UHGV virus genome: UHGV-0211740
From: a virus
DNA: 64,000 nucleotides
Reading direction: 5' to 3' (one strand)
Below, piece after piece: positions 34,296-44,468 of this stretch. The notes under the pieces are model-generated. The model was not told the origin of the DNA. It searched no databases and saw only the letters and a list, made by a program, of their open reading frames with translations. Position 1 is the first letter of the stretch, and every line of letters starts with the position of its first letter. The position numbers and the translations under genes were made by a program.

Positions 34296-35579
34296 TCATT
34301 CCAGAACCTCCCAAGTGTCAGGGTTAACATTTCGGACGCAGATGCCGACAGGGAATTGGTAGTTGTTGTCTTCTGTCCTTGCTTGATATTTGAAGGTGAC
34401 AAACTTGCCGATCATTTCCTGCATCCTGTCATAGCTACGCTCCTCGTGCGTGCCTTTCATCTTCATTTTAACAACGATACCTTCCTTGTCAACGCAGATA
34501 AGAACACCTTCATCATTCTTATCTTTCTCAACGTCAATAACTTTCACCTCAGCATCGTTGAACTTTTTCCATTTCAATGCTTCAGATGTTCGCTGACCAT
34601 ATTCATATTTACCGCAGAAGTTACGCATGATAGTACCTTCATATCCTTCTGACATGAATACACCAACAGATTCTTCGCAATGATCAACTGTGTACGCAAG
34701 CTCTGCGTCAACAACCTTGATATGGTCAAGCATCAGAGTGGTAATGGTATCTTCTGCATCCATAAGGTCCTTGCATCTTCCAGATTCTGTTTCCGGATCC
34801 CACCATACCTTGTCACTAGGGATGTCGAAAATATGATACTCTAAGTCATAGCTACAGTACCCTCCGTAACGCAAATCATCACGAACAGGCTCAACATCAA
34901 CAGGAATATCTACCTTATTGAAGTTTTTGTATGTTGATAAGCCTGCCTTAATTGCGGCATGACGGCGTTTTTTATCTGCCTCGTAGTCTTTATCTATCTC
35001 GGCCTGAATCTCTTCCTGTGTGCGCCACCGTTTAGCAAGAGACACTATTTTCTGCAGAGGCAGACCATGAATATAGATCTCTCCGTCGAGCTGTTTAATC
35101 CCGGTGGTGAAGTGGAAAGAACGAAGTTGCTCCAGAAGCTTTCCTTGAATAGGGTAGGACTTATTACCACGGGAAATAAATTTAGGCTCACCGTTTTGGA
35201 AAACAACCAGTAGACGAAGGCCATCTAACTTACGCAAGATCCAGCAAGGTAATTTAAGTGCCTTTCCACGCTTCAGGTAGTCATGCATCAGCATGGGTAA
35301 AAGGTCAACCCCCTGCTCGCAATCTTCCATATTTTCAACATACCCCAGACGGACTTGTTTTTCCCACTTACTGATCGCTTCCAGCTCAGCCTGTTGCTCA
35401 GCTGTAGTTTCATTGGCACGGCCCACGTTCTTAGGTGTGCAGATCGTCTCTTTGTATTGCAGTTTACCATCAAGCTTGCCAAACTCTACGATAACCTTAT
35501 CACCATCCGTGAATACTTTCCACTGTTGGTAGCTGCCATCTTTGTTCAGTGCGTACAGTGTTGTTTTGATCTGATGCAT
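34296..35579 (-). CDS. ATP-dependent DNA ligase
   Basis: Nucleotidyltransferase motif I KLDGLR, motif IV EGYEGTIM, motif V LKWKKF. Confidence 0.75.
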   Translation of the reverse strand: MHQIKTTLYALNKDGSYQQWKVFTDGDKVIVEFGKLDGKLQYKETICTPKNVGRANETTAEQQAELEAISKWEKQVRLGYVENMEDCEQGVDLLPMLMHDYLKRGKALKLPCWILRKLDGLRLLVVFQNGEPKFISRGNKSYPIQGKLLEQLRSFHFTTGIKQLDGEIYIHGLPLQKIVSLAKRWRTQEEIQAEIDKDYEADKKRRHAAIKAGLSTYKNFNKVDIPVDVEPVRDDLRYGGYCSYDLEYHIFDIPSDKVWWDPETESGRCKDLMDAEDTITTLMLDHIKVVDAELAYTVDHCEESVGVFMSEGYEGTIMRNFCGKYEYGQRTSEALKWKKFNDAEVKVIDVEKDKNDEGVLICVDKEGIVVKMKMKGTHEERSYDRMQEMIGKFVTFKYQARTEDNNYQFPVGICVRNVNPDTWEVLE

Positions 35580-36143: not shown

Positions 36144-36206
36144 AACTAACTACCTCACTTTCCTACTTTCCACAACAGATAAAGCCGGGTGACCCCGGCT
36201 ATGTTG

Positions 36207-36920
36207 TTAAATATACTCTGTTACATCCTTGAAGCTTGAAGGCTTCATAATCTTACCTTTGCTGTCAAGGAAGATGATAACCTTATTACCGTTGTAGAAT
36301 TCTTCTTTAGCAACAAAACCTTCATATCTACCATCGAAGCGTCGCTCAAGATCTTTAATCTCTAACTCTACAAGTTGTTCAACAGGCATATCTGCACTGG
36401 CACCGTGTGAATACCGTAGATGGTTGACCCGTGCAAACTTGCTGTCATTAGATTTGAGAACCTTCCGCATCATCCCGCACACATCACCGCGAAGCTGGAA
36501 TAGCAAAGCTGTTGACAACTCCGCCAGGCGGTAAGCAGAAGCTTTTTGCTTGGAGGTGTTTTTTGCAGCGATCAGTGTGTCATAGAACTCACCGATCTTA
36601 AACTTAAGACCTCGCGGATTATCAAACAGGTTTGACCACTTTTCATGATTATCATTAACAAGATAAGCGGCATAGCTTGTAACAACATGAAGATCGCAGG
36701 CCTCTTTTAGCAGATGATCTCCACCATCACCTTTCTCCAGCTCTTCCAAAACCTCATTAAACTCTTCCTCAATGAAGCTAAGTTGTAATTCGAATGGTGT
36801 GTATGATTTTTTCACTTTAGCTGCCACACGGTTCCAGTTTTCCACCCAGTTGGCAGACCAAAGGTAGTTTTCAGGTTGGGACAGTTTTTCCAGATTGTCA
36901 ATTAACTTAGTATTCAGCAT
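36207..36920 (-). CDS. hypothetical protein, possible MazG-like nucleotide pyrophosphohydrolase
   Basis: 237 aa; acidic helix FIEEEFNEVLEELEK resembles the metal-binding EExxE motif of all-alpha NTP pyrophosphatases; weak. Confidence 0.3.
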   Translation of the reverse strand: MLNTKLIDNLEKLSQPENYLWSANWVENWNRVAAKVKKSYTPFELQLSFIEEEFNEVLEELEKGDGGDHLLKEACDLHVVTSYAAYLVNDNHEKWSNLFDNPRGLKFKIGEFYDTLIAAKNTSKQKASAYRLAELSTALLFQLRGDVCGMMRKVLKSNDSKFARVNHLRYSHGASADMPVEQLVELEIKDLERRFDGRYEGFVAKEEFYNGNKVIIFLDSKGKIMKPSSFKDVTEYI

Positions 36921-36933
36921 TAAAGGTCTCCTT

Positions 36934-37695
36934 TTAAAGTTCCATGAAGTTTTCTACAGTTTCAATCAATGTTTTATCAGAGAAAGCGTCAACCGCACCG
37001 TTAAACCAAACAGGAATGCCGCGATCCTCATACTGGTAAATGTCACTACGTGAAATGCCATTCTCCTCCAAATGCTGTGAGTCATATTTGTTAACAATCA
37101 ACAGCTTAGTTCCCTTGTTACAGGCAGGGAACAGCTCCCAGTTAAAATTGATAACTGTGTTTGAGCACCCTACAAGGATAACCATATCATTGCTTGTCAG
37201 AGAAGTCAACAGATCATACATGTCTGTATACTTTGGAGCAACTTCTCCGAAGAACACCACATTAGGCTTAACCCAAATATACTCGCCTGCATCTACCTCC
37301 GAATACCCAATGTCTTTAATGACATTGCTTCCTTCATCGTCCTCATAGACTATTTCTGGCAAATACCCGTGGACATGTAAAATATCTTCATGTTTTACAC
37401 CAGCACGCTCTAGCAAATCATCTACATTGGTGGTCAGGTTGATCACACGACCAGACCAACGAGAATACCACTCTGCGATCCGGAGATGTGCAAGATTAGG
37501 CTCAACACTGCCCAAAGCTATACGCCGTGCATTGTAAAAGTCATGCACCTTATAATAGTTCTTGGCAAAGGTGTGGATGTTACACACCTCATCGATGCTG
37601 AAATTCTCCCACATTGCAGTGCTACCAGATCGAAAGGTGGGGATACCGGATTCAGCACTCAAGCCAGCACCAGAGATAACAATCAGTCGTCGCAT
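36934..37695 (-). CDS. Sir2-family NAD-dependent protein (sirtuin-like)
   Basis: N-terminal GAGLSAESGIPTFR Rossmann motif and downstream HG catalytic dyad; no Zn-binding Cys pairs. Confidence 0.75.
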   Translation of the reverse strand: MRRLIVISGAGLSAESGIPTFRSGSTAMWENFSIDEVCNIHTFAKNYYKVHDFYNARRIALGSVEPNLAHLRIAEWYSRWSGRVINLTTNVDDLLERAGVKHEDILHVHGYLPEIVYEDDEGSNVIKDIGYSEVDAGEYIWVKPNVVFFGEVAPKYTDMYDLLTSLTSNDMVILVGCSNTVINFNWELFPACNKGTKLLIVNKYDSQHLEENGISRSDIYQYEDRGIPVWFNGAVDAFSDKTLIETVENFMEL

Positions 37696-37703
37696 AGGTG
37701 TCC

Positions 37704-38051
37704 TCAGTAAATGTTCTGTTTAATCTCTATTCCAAACTTTTTGAACGAATCTGCAGCAAGCATAAATTTACGAGCTGCCGATGGGTTAGAAGTATGCACG
37801 AAAATCTTCACGTTGTCAACCACAGGTGGCTTGCCAAATACAAATAGCTCTTCCAGTCTCAATAAAACAGCATATCCGTCTTGATCAGAGTCTTCACCCA
37901 AATCGTGGTCAAAGAACCACTCTGTCACTCTTCGATACATTTTAGCAGAATTATTAAGAAACTCCATAGCCTCTTGTGAGGTTTTAAACCAAATTGCATC
38001 TGCCTGTCCGTAGTCAGCTGGGTTACGCAAATCATCTATCCAAACTTTCAT
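37704..38051 (-). CDS. hypothetical protein
   Basis: 115-aa ORF immediately upstream of the Sir2 gene. Confidence 0.4.
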   Translation of the reverse strand: MKVWIDDLRNPADYGQADAIWFKTSQEAMEFLNNSAKMYRRVTEWFFDHDLGEDSDQDGYAVLLRLEELFVFGKPPVVDNVKIFVHTSNPSAARKFMLAADSFKKFGIEIKQNIY

Positions 38052-38059
38052 ACATACCT

Positions 38060-38668
38060 CTAAAAATTTTCTATCGGTGTTTTTGAAGATAAAGCTAAAA
38101 CTATCTTATTCTCAATTCTTCGTAATCCTAATAGCAACCTACTATCATCTACAGTTTTAATCAAGTCTCTAAGAAGTTGCAGTTTACATTCTAAGTATCT
38201 CATGTGTGCCTCAATCTGCGTGGGGAAGGTTCCAAGATAAACCTGCGTGTCCTTAACCCCATCTTTGCAATAGGCAGCAAAAGATGGGCCTTTTCTTCTT
38301 ACTCCCATCAAACACTCCCCTCTTTGCGGCATCCTTGCTACAAAGAAGTTGTTTATTTCCCGGGGAACAAAAATACACGCTTCTGGGCAGTATATAAGAT
38401 TATTCTCGAAGAGAATATCTTTATCTAAAAATTTATCCCGCCAATCTTGTTTTTCCATCCAACGCTTGAAGTTGCTGAAGATTTTCCATTCTTCACAAAC
38501 TTCTACCATAGCATAAGCTTCAAATTTCTTGTTTTTAAGGTAGCACCTCCCTAGCATATTTGACCACGTCATATAAAAAGGACACATTATTCTCTTTCCA
38601 GTATCCTTGTCCAAAACCCTGACAGGATAGTCTGCATCATTAACACCAACACCATGTACAAGTTTCAT
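38060..38668 (-). CDS. putative homing-endonuclease-like protein with AP2-type DNA-binding segment
   Basis: YLGTFPTQIEAHMRY resembles the AP2 domain found in phage HNH homing endonucleases; weak. Confidence 0.35.
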   Translation of the reverse strand: MKLVHGVGVNDADYPVRVLDKDTGKRIMCPFYMTWSNMLGRCYLKNKKFEAYAMVEVCEEWKIFSNFKRWMEKQDWRDKFLDKDILFENNLIYCPEACIFVPREINNFFVARMPQRGECLMGVRRKGPSFAAYCKDGVKDTQVYLGTFPTQIEAHMRYLECKLQLLRDLIKTVDDSRLLLGLRRIENKIVLALSSKTPIENF

Positions 38669-38712
38669 ACAGACCTCTTAAGCTGAAATGATTAAAAAGA
38701 ACTTCCCCTTCT

Positions 38713-39669
38713 TCATTGCATATAGTCCTCGTTGTGGAAATAGTAGTCAAGTATCTCACGACGTTCCTGCTCAAGGAGGCAGTTCCACACATCCTCTGTG
38801 TAGTTGTTACGAATGAAGTTTACCATGCCATAAAACTCTTCGTCAATACGTTTAAAGATATCCTCATCCCAAATCTTCCAAGCTCTCCCTCTCATTACGG
38901 CCTTCCGTGCCAGGTAGTATGGAGATTTGATCTTCAACTGCAGGTCATAAGGGTAGTAAGGATTACGGATCATGTACCCTTCGCCCCTTGTTTCTGCAGC
39001 TAATTCTTTTGCATAGCTGAACGGAATTTCACGCACAGTGTGAGGACGTTTTGCACCAAGATACTTGGCAATACCGTCTAAAGCCGCTTCTGGTAGCATT
39101 ATTCCAGAATCATTGTATCTACAACCTATCAAATACGCACCATGATCCTCATGAACAATATGCGGGTCTGAAGGGTGACAAATTTCAAACATAAATGTCA
39201 TGTTTTCATGGCCCATAACCTTCTTGATAAGATCTAAATTGCCACATTGCTCCTGAATGGTTTCCTTTGCAAGGTTACAATATGGAGAATCAAGAGACCC
39301 AGTCGTTGAGAATAATAGTTCACCTTTATGAGAGGATACCACGCCAAGGAACCCGTTCTTTTTCTCTACAGCCGTCACAAGCTTATTGTCAGGTAGGTTG
39401 GTTGAGTTTTCTCCCAAGTTAAACACTTTTGTGAAGGGCCATGCCACAACATTCCCCTCGTTACCGACAACAATGCCTCGGCACTCCAGTAGACGCGGAG
39501 AAAAATGCCATAAATTGTTGTAGAATACTTTTCTGGCATATTTGTAGATCTTTAATCCGAGATCTGGATAATACCGACTGGTTACAAGACCTTTATCCAC
39601 TAAATCATCTGCATTAAAATACTTCATCATGCGTTCCTCATTTGTCATTTTGTTCCACAATCTTCCCAC
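38713..39669 (-). CDS. RNA ligase, Rnl1 (T4 RnlA) family
   Basis: LLECRGIVV, KVFNLGEN, motif I VEKKNGF, motif IV EGYMIR and motif V LKIKS line up with T4 Rnl1. Confidence 0.75.
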   Translation of the reverse strand: MGRLWNKMTNEERMMKYFNADDLVDKGLVTSRYYPDLGLKIYKYARKVFYNNLWHFSPRLLECRGIVVGNEGNVVAWPFTKVFNLGENSTNLPDNKLVTAVEKKNGFLGVVSSHKGELLFSTTGSLDSPYCNLAKETIQEQCGNLDLIKKVMGHENMTFMFEICHPSDPHIVHEDHGAYLIGCRYNDSGIMLPEAALDGIAKYLGAKRPHTVREIPFSYAKELAAETRGEGYMIRNPYYPYDLQLKIKSPYYLARKAVMRGRAWKIWDEDIFKRIDEEFYGMVNFIRNNYTEDVWNCLLEQERREILDYYFHNEDYMQ

Positions 39670-39748
39670 ACAAACAGTATCATGTCAACACTTGAAATGC
39701 TCAAAAGAACACGGTATACTGTCGTTAAAATTAAAACGGAGGGTCGCT

Positions 39749-40159
39749 ATGTCTAAAATGCTATATATCGTGCGTGGTCTACCAGGGTCTGGCAAATCAA
39801 CACTGGCAAATGCGTTATCTTTAGAAGGTCTGTATCCACATTTTGAGAACGACATGTTCTGGTACGACGATGATGGAAATTACAACTGGGATGCAAGTAA
39901 AGTGACACTTGCTGCAAAATGGTGCAAAGATAATATAGAAGATATGATGCGTATGGGGTACGACCGTGTCGTGGTAAGCAACACATTCACAAAAGAAAAG
40001 CATGTGCAAGAGTATATTGACATGGCGATCCGTAATGGGTATAATTACACAGTAATCGTGGTGGAGAATCGCCACGGTAACAAAAGTATCCACAATGTTC
40101 CAGAAAAGGTTGTGGATCGTATGGAACGTGAACTGAAAAACTGTATTAAACTTAAATGA
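39749..40159 (+). CDS. P-loop kinase, putative polynucleotide 5-prime kinase
   Basis: Start refined to the ATG after a GGAGGG RBS; Walker A VRGLPGSGKST like the T4 Pnk kinase domain. Confidence 0.55.
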   Translation: MSKMLYIVRGLPGSGKSTLANALSLEGLYPHFENDMFWYDDDGNYNWDASKVTLAAKWCKDNIEDMMRMGYDRVVVSNTFTKEKHVQEYIDMAIRNGYNYTVIVVENRHGNKSIHNVPEKVVDRMERELKNCIKLK

Positions 40160-40166
40160 GGATAGT

Positions 40167-40721
40167 ATGAAATATTTTATAACAAGTGACACACACTTTC
40201 TCCACCAGCGTGTTATGGAGTTCGATTCTTGTCAAAAGCACAGATCGCAGTATAACCACGATCTTGATAGCATGAATGCAGGGATCATAGACAAGTGGAA
40301 CTCAATTGTGTCACCATGGGACACTGTGTTCCACTTGGGAGACATTGCATGCACTAAGGATAAGAATATCAACAACTTACTGCCTGAAATTCTAAATATG
40401 CTGAACGGACATATTATTCTTGTTCGTGGTAACCATGACACAAGGACGACTGTCAGAATTATGAAAGAGTTCTGTCATGAGGTTGTAGATTATTACGAGC
40501 TTCGCCACAACAAGAATCTGATCTGTATGAGCCATTACCAGTTTGCAACGTGGAACAGAAAGCCCCACGGATCAGTTCAACTGTTTGGTCATGCTCACGG
40601 AACCACACAACAGTTATTTGGCAGGCAGTTGGATGTTGGTTGGGATGTATGGGGTAGACTGTTACCACTAGAAGAGGCATACAGCCTTGCAATGAGTTTT
40701 GATATTGACAGCAGGGAGTAA
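40167..40721 (+). CDS. calcineurin-like metallophosphoesterase
   Basis: Motifs SDTHF, LGDIA, RGNHD and GHAHG of the binuclear metallophosphoesterase fold. Confidence 0.7.
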   Translation: MKYFITSDTHFLHQRVMEFDSCQKHRSQYNHDLDSMNAGIIDKWNSIVSPWDTVFHLGDIACTKDKNINNLLPEILNMLNGHIILVRGNHDTRTTVRIMKEFCHEVVDYYELRHNKNLICMSHYQFATWNRKPHGSVQLFGHAHGTTQQLFGRQLDVGWDVWGRLLPLEEAYSLAMSFDIDSRE

Positions 40722-43659: not shown

Positions 43660-43734
43660 GCCCTGTTAGCTTAGTGGATAAAGCAGCGGCCTTCTAAGCC
43701 GTTGACACTGGTTCGAGTCCAGTACGGGGTGCCA
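43660..43734 (+). tRNA. tRNA-Arg (anticodon TCT)
   Basis: 7-bp acceptor stem, T-arm CTGGTTCGAGTCCAG, anticodon loop CTTCTAA, 3-prime CCA encoded. Confidence 0.75.
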
Positions 43735-43738
43735 AATC

Positions 43739-43825
43739 GGGGAGTTATACCGTAGAGGTAGCGGTGTAGACTGTAAATCTATTGTCATTGCGACTCGGGT
43801 GGTTCGACTCCATCACTCCCCACCA
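43739..43825 (+). tRNA. tRNA-Tyr (anticodon GTA)
   Basis: Acceptor GGGGAGT/ACTCCCC, anticodon loop CTGTAAA, long variable arm, T-loop GGTTCGACTCC, CCA encoded. Confidence 0.75.
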
Positions 43826-43936
43826 AAATCCCATATTTGTGATAAATAATATAGATAATGACATTGATGTTTATCGTCGTTTATACTAGTCCCTAACTGT
43901 TCGAAAATCAGTGTCATTATCAGTGTTGTTTATAAA

Positions 43937-44026
43937 AGAGAGTAGGGAGCATGGTGCTCAAGCGGTCTTGAAAACCGTCCCGTTGAGATATCCTCGATGA
44001 TGGTTCGATTCCATTACTCTCTGCCA
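43937..44026 (+). tRNA. tRNA-Ser (anticodon TGA)
   Basis: Perfect 7-bp acceptor AGAGAGT/ACTCTCT, anticodon loop CTTGAAA, long variable arm, T-loop TTCGATT, CCA encoded. Confidence 0.75.
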
Positions 44027-44124
44027 GATCGTGGATCATGAAATTAAGCGAGCGCCGGAAGCAGAACCGGATTAACAAATGTTACAGTCGTCATCGCCGA
44101 CTAGCAGCATGATCCACATAATAT

Positions 44125-44221
44125 GCTAGGTAAGCCCTTTGGCAAGGGCGAGGATTTTTAATCCTGAAAATAGACGAAGCAGTCGTTGAATACATAGGTG
44201 GTTCGATTCCATCGCCTAGCA
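44125..44221 (+). tRNA. atypical 97-nt tRNA-like gene (possible pseudo-tRNA or non-canonical tRNA)
   Basis: Perfect acceptor stem GCTAGGT/GCCTAGC and canonical T-arm GGTGGTTCGATTCCATC, but no clean 5-bp anticodon stem with 7-nt loop (closest is AGGA/TCCT with loop TTTTTAA) plus about 30 nt of extra internal sequence; no encoded CCA. Confidence 0.35.
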
Positions 44222-44228
44222 CCTTTTT

Positions 44229-44304
44229 GCTGATGTAGCACAATTGGTAGTGCAATTGATTTGTAATCAATAGGTTGCAGGTTCAAGTCCTGCCATCAGC
44301 ACCA
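44229..44304 (+). tRNA. tRNA-Thr (anticodon TGT)
   Basis: Acceptor GCTGATG/CATCAGC, anticodon stem-loop ATTGA-TTTGTAA-TCAAT, T-loop GGTTCAAGTCC, CCA encoded. Confidence 0.8.
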
Positions 44305-44305
44305 T

Positions 44306-44380
44306 GTCCCTGTAGCTGGAAGGTTCAAGCAAGCGACTCATAATCGCCAGACGGTGGTTCAATTCCACCCAGGGCCACCA
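44306..44380 (+). tRNA. tRNA-Met or Ile2 (anticodon CAT)
   Basis: Acceptor GTCCCTG/CAGGGCC with one mismatch, anticodon loop CTCATAA, T-arm GGTGGTTCAATTCCACC, CCA encoded. Confidence 0.7.
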
Positions 44381-44391
44381 AATTATAAATA

Positions 44392-44468
44392 CTCCGCGTA
44401 GCTCAGCTTGGTAGAGCGCCTGATTTGGGATCAGGAGGTCGAGTGTTCGAATCACTCCGTGGAGACCA
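44392..44468 (+). tRNA. tRNA-Pro (anticodon TGG)
   Basis: C1-G72 acceptor CTCCGCG/CGTGGAG, D-arm AGCTCAGCTTGGTAGAGC, anticodon loop TTTGGGA, T-loop GTTCGAATC, CCA encoded. Confidence 0.8.

Follow-up and report, generated by a model that had tools for sequence, protein, structure and literature searches.

The sirtuin gene described here lies in a 64,000-nucleotide (nt) stretch of viral DNA, UHGV virus genome UHGV-0211740 (hereafter the window, meaning the whole stretch), whose source is an rV5-like E. coli myophage of the genus Vequintavirus. On the minus strand, the gene encoding this Sir2-family protein follows a gene encoding cREC, a receiver-fold protein, whose reading frame ends 8 nt before the Sir2 ATG. 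Both genes are co-transcribed with those of a T4 Rnl1-type RNA ligase and a MazG-like hydrolase, and lie beside genes for a 5'-kinase and a metallophosphoesterase (Table 1). In minus-strand order the operon runs Rnl1 ligase, HNH endonuclease, cREC, Sir2 and MazG-like protein, and closes with a hairpin terminator. Its genes are tightly packed, and cREC, Sir2 and the MazG-like gene each have their own Shine-Dalgarno sequence a few nucleotides upstream: that of Sir2 (GAGGA) overlaps the cREC stop codon, and that of the MazG-like gene (AAGGAG) lies 7 nt ahead of its ATG. The probable terminator, a hairpin of 7 pairs of which 6 are G-C, starts 7 nt past the MazG-like stop codon. A sequence-only reading of the window had correctly recognized the family of the Sir2 protein and the frame abutting it upstream; it had missed the identity of that partner as cREC and the RNA-repair operon around the pair.

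The corresponding neighbourhood of phage V5 has been published (Iyer, Burroughs, Anantharaman and Aravind 2022, Viruses 14:1977; PMC9503650, section 3.7.3). Its 'type 2', for which Escherichia phage V5 and Proteus phage Mydo serve as prototypes, comprises a sirtuin, a T4-like tRNA ligase, cREC, a nucleotide kinase and a MazG pyrophosphatase, joined in some cases by a calcineurin-like phosphoesterase (PMC9503650). In the window all six are found within 36207..40721; the same set is present in RudolfGeigy, with the layout of the window minus the HNH gene, and is rearranged in Mydo-type loci. The window pair is an already-described member of the phage sirtuin-cREC RNA-repair module, known as a genomic pattern and a computational prediction, and the genomic observation itself is not new.

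Table 1. Features of the sirtuin-cREC locus and its surroundings, in window coordinates
Feature	Position	Strand	Description and matches
ATP-dependent DNA ligase	34296..35579	-	Pfam DNA_ligase_A_M and OB_2; 1.4 kb downstream of Sir2
Probable terminator of the ligase-cREC-Sir2-MazG-like operon	36183..36200	-	GC-rich hairpin with T-rich tail; consensus scan
MazG-like nucleotide pyrophosphohydrolase candidate, last gene of the operon	36207..36920	-	237 amino acids (aa); PHROG 671 'nucleotide pyrophosphohydrolase', E 6e-22
Sir2-family protein	36934..37695	-	253 aa, ATG start; Pfam SIR2, PHROG 2162
cREC receiver-fold protein	37704..38051	-	115 aa; PF20274
Free-standing HNH homing endonuclease	38060..38668	-	PHROG 953 HNH endonuclease, E 4e-69
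T4 Rnl1-family RNA ligase, first gene of the operon	38713..39669	-	Pfam RNA_lig_T4_1, E 1.5e-14; PHROG 562, E 3e-66
P-loop polynucleotide 5'-kinase	39743..40159	+	138 aa; PHROG 2071, E 7e-58; PHROG 505 polynucleotide kinase, E 5e-10
Sigma-70 consensus match	40017..40045	+	12/12 (TTGACA, 17 nt, TATAAT); within the 3' part of the kinase gene
Calcineurin-like metallophosphoesterase	40167..40721	+	184 aa; PHROG 547 phosphoesterase, E 1e-50; PDB 1xm7, E 1e-9
Six phage tRNA genes	43660..44468	+	Arg-TCT, Tyr-GTA, Ser-TGA, Thr-TGT, Met-CAT, Pro-TGG

The partner of Sir2 matched the cREC_REC model (PF20274) with E 1.4e-16 and 61.4 bits against a cutoff of 27. Residues D6, D7, D48, D50, T87/S88 and K95 are invariant among its homologues and include the Asp pair, phospho-acceptor Asp, Thr/Ser and Lys of receiver domains; cREC has the receiver fold, and its aspartyl-phosphate catalytic set is complete. 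In the paper that established the family (Iyer et al. 2021, PMC7824862), cREC is described as a receiver domain that never occurs together with histidine kinases; its associations are with NAD+/ADP-ribose enzymes and RNA ligases, and the opening of cyclic phosphates is its predicted function. Sequence searches of the PDB with cREC, and likewise with the RNA ligase, the kinase and the MazG-like protein, returned no matches.

The HNH gene has gone in precisely where the RNA ligase gene stops and cREC begins (junctions at 38051 and 38713); in relatives these two genes overlap (ATGA). No insertion was found at this site in 124 related records or in RudolfGeigy, and the only similar HNH copy in the phage collection, in Phapecoctavirus SKA64 (86.7% nt identity), also lies directly upstream of cREC. 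The HNH gene is a passenger and not a functional part of the module. Relative to the closest relative, cREC is only 73.5% identical at the protein level, with Sir2 and ligase at 99.2 and 98.4%, because the cREC gene is chimeric: in a three-way DNA alignment codons 1 to about 65 were SKA64-like and codons from about 66 to 115 V5-like, with a crossover near 37850. This pattern fits co-conversion of cREC during invasion by the homing endonuclease, and all catalytic residues are kept in the chimera.

As to the other neighbours, the RNA ligase label is also carried by the counterpart gene in annotated relatives. The MazG-like protein had no match in Pfam, and its membership in the MazG superfamily is stated in PMC9503650. 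The kinase and metallophosphoesterase genes are divergent from the ligase operon; the counterpart of the kinase in RudolfGeigy is labelled polynucleotide kinase, and the metallophosphoesterase, whose NCBIfam phosphoesterase matches are weak, is a candidate for RNA 3'-end healing. A possible internal promoter is the perfect sigma-70 site, which precedes the start of the metallophosphoesterase gene by about 120 nt. The tRNA cluster lies about 3 kb downstream of these two genes, and its tRNAs could possibly be substrates, or bypass copies, for tRNA-targeting host nucleases. The 3 kb around Sir2 matched 124 phage records, the best being OX460980 (98.6% DNA identity over the aligned 71% of the queried 3 kb). 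Three records, MG065655, MG065652 and MG065658 ('Campylobacter phage C2/C7/C11', host Campylobacter jejuni), share about 93% DNA identity with this E. coli Vequintavirus region; a wrong host assignment, or contamination of the lysates, is the probable explanation.

The Sir2 protein and its lineage

The Sir2 protein matched Pfam SIR2 (PF02146) over model positions 1–178 of 180 (E 4.2e-27; 95.7 bits against a cutoff of 24) and PHROG 2162 'Sir2' (E 5e-109). The sirtuin motif and the HG dyad picked out by the sequence-only reading were both confirmed: residues 9–22 (37630..37671) read GAGLSAESGIPTFR, and His109-Gly110 (37366..37371), inside ILHVHGY, is invariant in 20 family members. The Sir2 motifs GAGxS..SGxxFR, TTNVDD, H109-G110, FFGE and GCSN are retained, together with N202 and Y54/R57. 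Residues G9, A10, G11, S16, G17, F21, R22, N90, D92, H109, G110, F149, E151, G176, S178 and N202 are invariant in the 20 clade members and common to E. coli CobB.

The zinc ribbon is missing, as the same reading had held. Canonical sirtuins carry a Cys4 zinc module in the small domain, in the segment between HG and FGE; the window protein has only three cysteines (C38, C177 and C192), no CxxC and no Cys in that segment, which was modelled as a confident beta-hairpin (strands 110–118 and 124–128) in a block with predicted local distance difference test (pLDDT) values above 90. None of the 120 nearest homologues contains CxxC, and 112 of the 113 with a delimitable HG..FGE segment have none or one Cys there, the remaining one having two. 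Three derived features characterize the core clade of V5-, T5-, Mydo- and phi92-like phages: loss of the zinc cysteines, TQNID to TTNVD, and GTSxxVYP to GCSNxVINF, the last with loss of the Pro of VYP present in CobB. Only the most distant jumbo-phage member (L061) keeps CxxC...CxxC, and with it all three ancestral features; another member (L058) is intermediate for the three. Zinc loss was noted in Vibrio phage sirtuins in 2016, with salt bridges replacing the zinc ligands (Skliros et al. 2016, PMC5107563).

Loss of zinc alone is not special, since 11 of the best 80 cellular CobB-like matches also lack Cys in this segment. In a scan of cellular genomes mostly ordinary CobB-like genes were recovered, with 30–40% identity over residues 1–181, and one full-length zinc-less relative, in a Marinobacterium metagenome-assembled genome (42% identity); at none of the loci of these cellular relatives was a cREC, Rnl1 or kinase neighbour found.

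The dyad Y54/R57 (Tyr-x-x-Arg) is invariant and aligns with Y92/R95 of CobB within an identical FYNARR, the CobB numbering having been checked against the PDB mutant names A76G and Y92A. By this alignment the dyad corresponds to an anion pocket next to C1'. In class III enzymes the Tyr-x-x-Arg pocket binds an anionic group and accommodates acidic acyl groups. The nearest solved structures by sequence are E. coli CobB (E 4e-21), SIRT5 and Sir2Af. The matches to the NCBIfam CobB models fell far under the cutoff (122 against 243 bits).

The AlphaFold (AF2) model (pLDDT 89; predicted template modelling score 0.88) shows a Rossmann domain and a small domain, the fold of sirtuins. With this model Foldseek returned canonical deacylases for all of the top 50 matches (CobB, E 3e-18). 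Fold-comparison figures were 22.4 for Sir2Af1, 19.9 for PfSir2A and about 18 for Hst2, SIRT1, SIRT2 and SIRT4, followed by 15.3 for the macrodomain-linked sirtuin SirTM and 9.8–13.4 for PsSIR2, HerA-Sir2, KomC, ThsA and Avs5. Motifs and model identify the protein as an intact NAD+-binding sirtuin from the class III (CobB/SIRT5) lineage whose zinc ribbon has been lost. A class III derivation, and not a defence-type one, follows from the sequence and fold neighbours, which are canonical deacylases, and from a PADLOC scan without significant match.

The same comparison bears on the proposal, made in the sequence-only reading, that the protein depletes NAD+ as an effector against competitors. Membership in the SIR2 superfamily, and the frequency of SIR2 effectors in defence systems, speak for a phage-carried NADase that would exclude competitors or abort infection. 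No defence SIR2 model was significantly matched, however, and the structural comparison with defence-type SIR2 domains that the reading had suggested grouped the model with the canonical deacylases, far above ThsA, DSR2 or HerA-type SIR2. Nor was a sensor or partner (SLOG, HerA, pAgo/APAZ, STAND or TIR) found, fused or adjacent: Sir2 is single-domain and its neighbours are RNA ligase, HNH, cREC and MazG-like genes. We consider a defence-type NADase very improbable and rejected it. The vaguer suggestion of a part in NAD metabolism was loosely right.

Lineage and fold are what would be expected of a conventional NAD+-dependent lysine deacylase (a CobB-like desuccinylase, demalonylase or deacetylase) that remodels host or phage acylation, for example by activating acetyl-CoA synthetase or by keeping lysines of the neighbouring ligases free, with the hairpin in place of the zinc ribbon. 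CobB, SIRT5 and Sir2Af1 are the nearest sequences and structures, and all deacylation residues are kept (His109, F21/R22, N90/D92 and the succinyl-recognition dyad Y54/R57). Isoelectric points (pI), a crude proxy for electrostatics, are also in line with this: the phage clade is acidic (4.6–6.1; window Sir2 4.8), like the CobB core (5.4), and the RNA-repair enzyme KptA has a value of 9.4. A deacylase role was proposed for the Vibrio phage sirtuins by Skliros et al. 2016 (PMC5107563). Set against these points, the Pro of the acyl-lysine channel is lost and TQN has become TTN throughout the core clade, and the host already supplies CobB. An ordinary deacylase would also leave the association with RNA-repair enzymes unexplained. 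We regard this account, which covers the regulation of host acetylation put forward in the sequence-only reading, as a live alternative that is less likely than not.

Gene company of Sir2 in other phages

A tblastn search with the window Sir2 retrieved 978 of 50,697 phage records, the bulk of them Escherichia and Salmonella phages. Gene contexts were surveyed at sixty IMG/VR loci, grouped into 25 clusters at 75% identity. In V5-type loci the context was that of the window. In six Mydo-type loci phosphoesterase, ligase, cREC, kinase, Sir2, DNA ligase and MazG-like genes lie on a single strand; three loci (L037, L051 and L054) keep this order minus cREC, and in another (L041) cREC is 5.7 kb upstream of Sir2. 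Across these four arrangements Sir2 stays linked to Rnl1, kinase, metallophosphoesterase, DNA ligase and MazG-like genes. The ATP-dependent DNA ligase gene comes directly after Sir2 in Mydo-type and L037-type phages (gene order in L023, L037, L054 and others), and this adjacency in several clades counts in favour of a deacylase. In the three loci without cREC, open reading frames of 162 and 75 aa lie between kinase and Sir2 (L037:7302-7787 and L037:7774-7998); neither matched Pfam, and they may be a non-homologous replacement of cREC.

In T5 and 22 similar loci, Sir2 (T5.102) is accompanied by a HAD_SAK_2 'Swiss-army-knife RNA repair' phosphatase and two DUF7415 genes. In the T5 record (L062, NC_005859 56447-58927) the product annotated 'Sir2 (NAD-dependent deacetylase)', T5.105, is the HAD_SAK_2 phosphatase (E 4e-20); T5.102 is the true sirtuin, and T5.106 and T5.107 are the paired DUF7415 proteins. 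The presence of Sir2 in T5-like phages, which apparently lack RNA ligase and cREC, is a further point for deacylation. Twelve other clusters showed DUF7275/7277 (four), NAPRTase/NAMPT (two), and RlaP, RNA ligase, Thg1, HAD_SAK_2 or DUF4326 (one each) beside Sir2. In four contigs of 148–153 kb that form one Sir2 cluster (L032, L033, L034 and L039) the gene is flanked by DUF7275 and DUF7277 and not by RNA-repair genes.

In the Serratia jumbo phage BF (L150, KY630187 53447-63067), Sir2 is directly followed by a Nudt16-like Nudix-cREC fusion (cREC part, E 1e-24) and a PIN-PhoH gene, and preceded by genes for NadM-Nudix, NAMPT and an Acb1-like 2H esterase; here Sir2 and cREC are paired without any RNA ligase. 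This neighbourhood looks like an NAD+-centred counter-defence island, and it suggests that Sir2 and cREC, with Nudix or MazG, might make or destroy an ADP-ribose-derived small molecule, for instance by degrading or mimicking an immune signal, with neither RNA nor protein as substrate. In line with this, NAD+ rebuilding enzymes (NAMPT, NadM-Nudix) and the Acb1-like esterase accompany the BF pair, NAPRTase/NAMPT genes are neighbours in two of the twelve other clusters and DUF4326 in one, and Iyer et al. 2021 (PMC7824862) raised the idea for phage SIR2 and cREC. The window neighbours, by contrast, are enzymes that heal and seal RNA ends and not enzymes of NAD+ salvage. In addition, canonical class III sirtuins are poor free NADases, and we know of no target signal. 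An activity of this kind in the window module is in our view unlikely.

As a universal partner of Sir2, cREC was rejected: among the 25 clusters it adjoins or lies near Sir2 in the V5, Mydo and L041 clusters only, and additionally in phage BF. The company that does recur is an aspartate-type or 2H phosphoesterase, not a macrodomain, since cREC, HAD_SAK_2 and 2H proteins accompany Sir2 in unrelated phages. Deacylation by sirtuins yields O-acyl-ADP-ribose, for which a macrodomain is the usual partner; beside Sir2 neither a macrodomain nor another protein that would process O-acyl-ADP-ribose is present, which weakens the case for an ordinary deacylase.

Proposed NAD+ chemistry on RNA or ADP-ribose phosphates, and known systems

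We favour the interpretation that Sir2 and cREC are two components of the rV5-like phage RNA-repair operon that carry out NAD+ chemistry directed at RNA or phosphate, and assign it a probability of about 0.4. The operon linkage, the invariant NAD+-binding and catalytic residues, the anion pocket and the derived substrate-facing motifs (TTN and GCSNxVINF) count in its favour. The recurrence of an Asp-nucleophile-type phosphoesterase beside Sir2 (cREC in V5 and BF, HAD_SAK_2 in T5) fits a phosphorylated substrate or product and does not fit O-acyl-ADP-ribose.

Following Iyer et al. 2022, who proposed the sirtuin to be KptA-like and to remove 2'-phosphates derived from 2',3'-cyclic ends, with associated esterases opening the cyclic end or processing ADP-ribose cyclic phosphate (PMC9503650), the sirtuin would transfer ADP-ribose from NAD+ to a phosphate and not act on acyl-lysine. 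The preferred acceptor would be an RNA 2'-phosphate, left when the 2',3'-cyclic end produced by an anticodon nuclease is opened. Nicotinamide would leave, and the 2''-OH of ADP-ribose would then attack the phosphate to give 2'-OH RNA and ADP-ribose 1'',2''-cyclic phosphate, in effect the reaction of Tpt1/KptA performed by a sirtuin. Step for step, the alkylamidate mechanism of sirtuins parallels that of Tpt1. The part of cREC would be either to convert the RNA 2',3'-cyclic phosphate into a 2'-phosphate ahead of ligation or to hydrolyse ADP-ribose cyclic phosphate; the MazG-like enzyme (Nudix in other phages) would degrade the ADP-ribose remnant, with healing and sealing of the RNA left to kinase and ligase.

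If so, the phage sirtuin might be a non-orthologous replacement of Tpt1/KptA and the first sirtuin whose nucleophile is an RNA phosphate (2' or terminal) in place of an acyl-lysine. A cREC or HAD-type partner would deal with the cyclic phosphate of RNA or ADP-ribose, and lytic phages would thereby possess an NAD+-dependent way of repairing tRNAs cut by anticodon nucleases of the host. We advance this proposal tentatively and judge it to be more likely wrong than right. KptA was detectable in 98 phage records, and among the organism names listed for them (all but three) no Escherichia or Salmonella phage was found; most of the names listed belonged to phages of Erwinia, Dickeya, Klebsiella and Serratia (jumbo phages in the rows listed), and others to Clostridioides phages. 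Going by these names, the data are consistent with a complementary distribution of KptA and Sir2 carriers. Occupation of the same operon slot by KptA was also considered and dropped: three loci (Erwinia RAY, Klebsiella FBKp24 and Erwinia SNUABM_32) were uninformative, their neighbours being unannotated and mostly without Pfam match, with a radical SAM protein as the single match.

A number of observations weigh against a phosphate- or RNA-directed role. To our knowledge no sirtuin acts on phosphate or RNA, and literature searches turned up no experiments on either phage sirtuins or cREC. True protein deacylases are the nearest relatives in both sequence and fold, and the acidity of the clade resembles that of the CobB core and not that of RNA-binding KptA. 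Distribution raises further difficulties. Salmonella phage records comprise 287 with Sir2, 14 with Rnl1 and 14 with cREC; no match to an Rnl1-type ligase or cREC was found in the first 63 kb of T5; and organism counts suggest that T5-like siphoviruses, seemingly a large share of the Sir2 carriers, have no detectable Rnl1-type ligase and cREC. In phages such as ZCKP1 and tuntematon about 30 kb separate Sir2 from cREC, a distance that in ZCKP1 applies to Rnl1 as well; Phapecoctavirus SKA64 has a cREC-phosphoesterase-ligase-kinase module without Sir2. The V5, Mydo and L037-type linkages are not independent of one another, because their gene order may be shared by common descent, and the context in phage BF is one of NAD+ salvage and not of RNA ligation. 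Finally, the T4-type pathway of kinase, phosphoesterase and Rnl1 leaves no 2'-phosphate by itself.

The Sir2 gene is common and conserved and is present in model coliphages (T5, BASEL collection). If the predicted chemistry were true, the substrates of sirtuins would extend to a nucleic-acid or phosphate class, and receiver domains would have a catalytic function beyond two-component signalling. Of the phage genomes sequenced, about 2% would then carry an unrecognized NAD+-dependent counter-measure to host RNA-targeting immunity, and the carriers would include T5 and rV5 relatives used in phage therapy collections. An ordinary deacylase would instead give a tractable example of how a virus reshapes the acylation of host proteins.

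Compared with the published type 2 neighbourhoods of V5 and Mydo, whose description is purely computational, the window has the same gene set and adds the HNH gene between ligase and cREC and the chimeric cREC allele. With the T4 Pnkp-Rnl1 system of tRNA repair it shares an Rnl1-family ligase, a 5'-kinase and a phosphoesterase, a lytic coliphage as carrier and a nearby tRNA cluster. Kinase and phosphoesterase are separate proteins in the window, however, and belong to other families (P-loop only, and calcineurin-like rather than HAD), and T4 has neither sirtuin nor cREC. From CobB, SIRT5 and Sir2Af1 the phage Sir2 differs by the absence of zinc cysteines, by TTNVD for TQNID and by GCSNxVINF for GTSxxVYP; it is about 29% identical to CobB and, unlike CobB, sits in an RNA-repair operon. 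With the defence SIR2 NADases (ThsA, DSR2, SIR2-HerA, KomC, Avs5 and SIR2-APAZ) it has in common the SIR2 superfamily and the NAD+-binding Rossmann core. With Tpt1/KptA it would share a predicted role in RNA repair, the proposed two-step chemistry and, by family analogy only, NAD+ consumption with nicotinamide release. The likeness is a proposed functional analogy, since the phage protein belongs to neither the fold nor the sequence family of KptA, which is a member of the ADP-ribosyltransferase superfamily and basic where Sir2 is acidic. A precedent for a sirtuin that works as an ADP-ribosyltransferase instead of a deacylase is provided by SirTM, the macrodomain-linked sirtuins.

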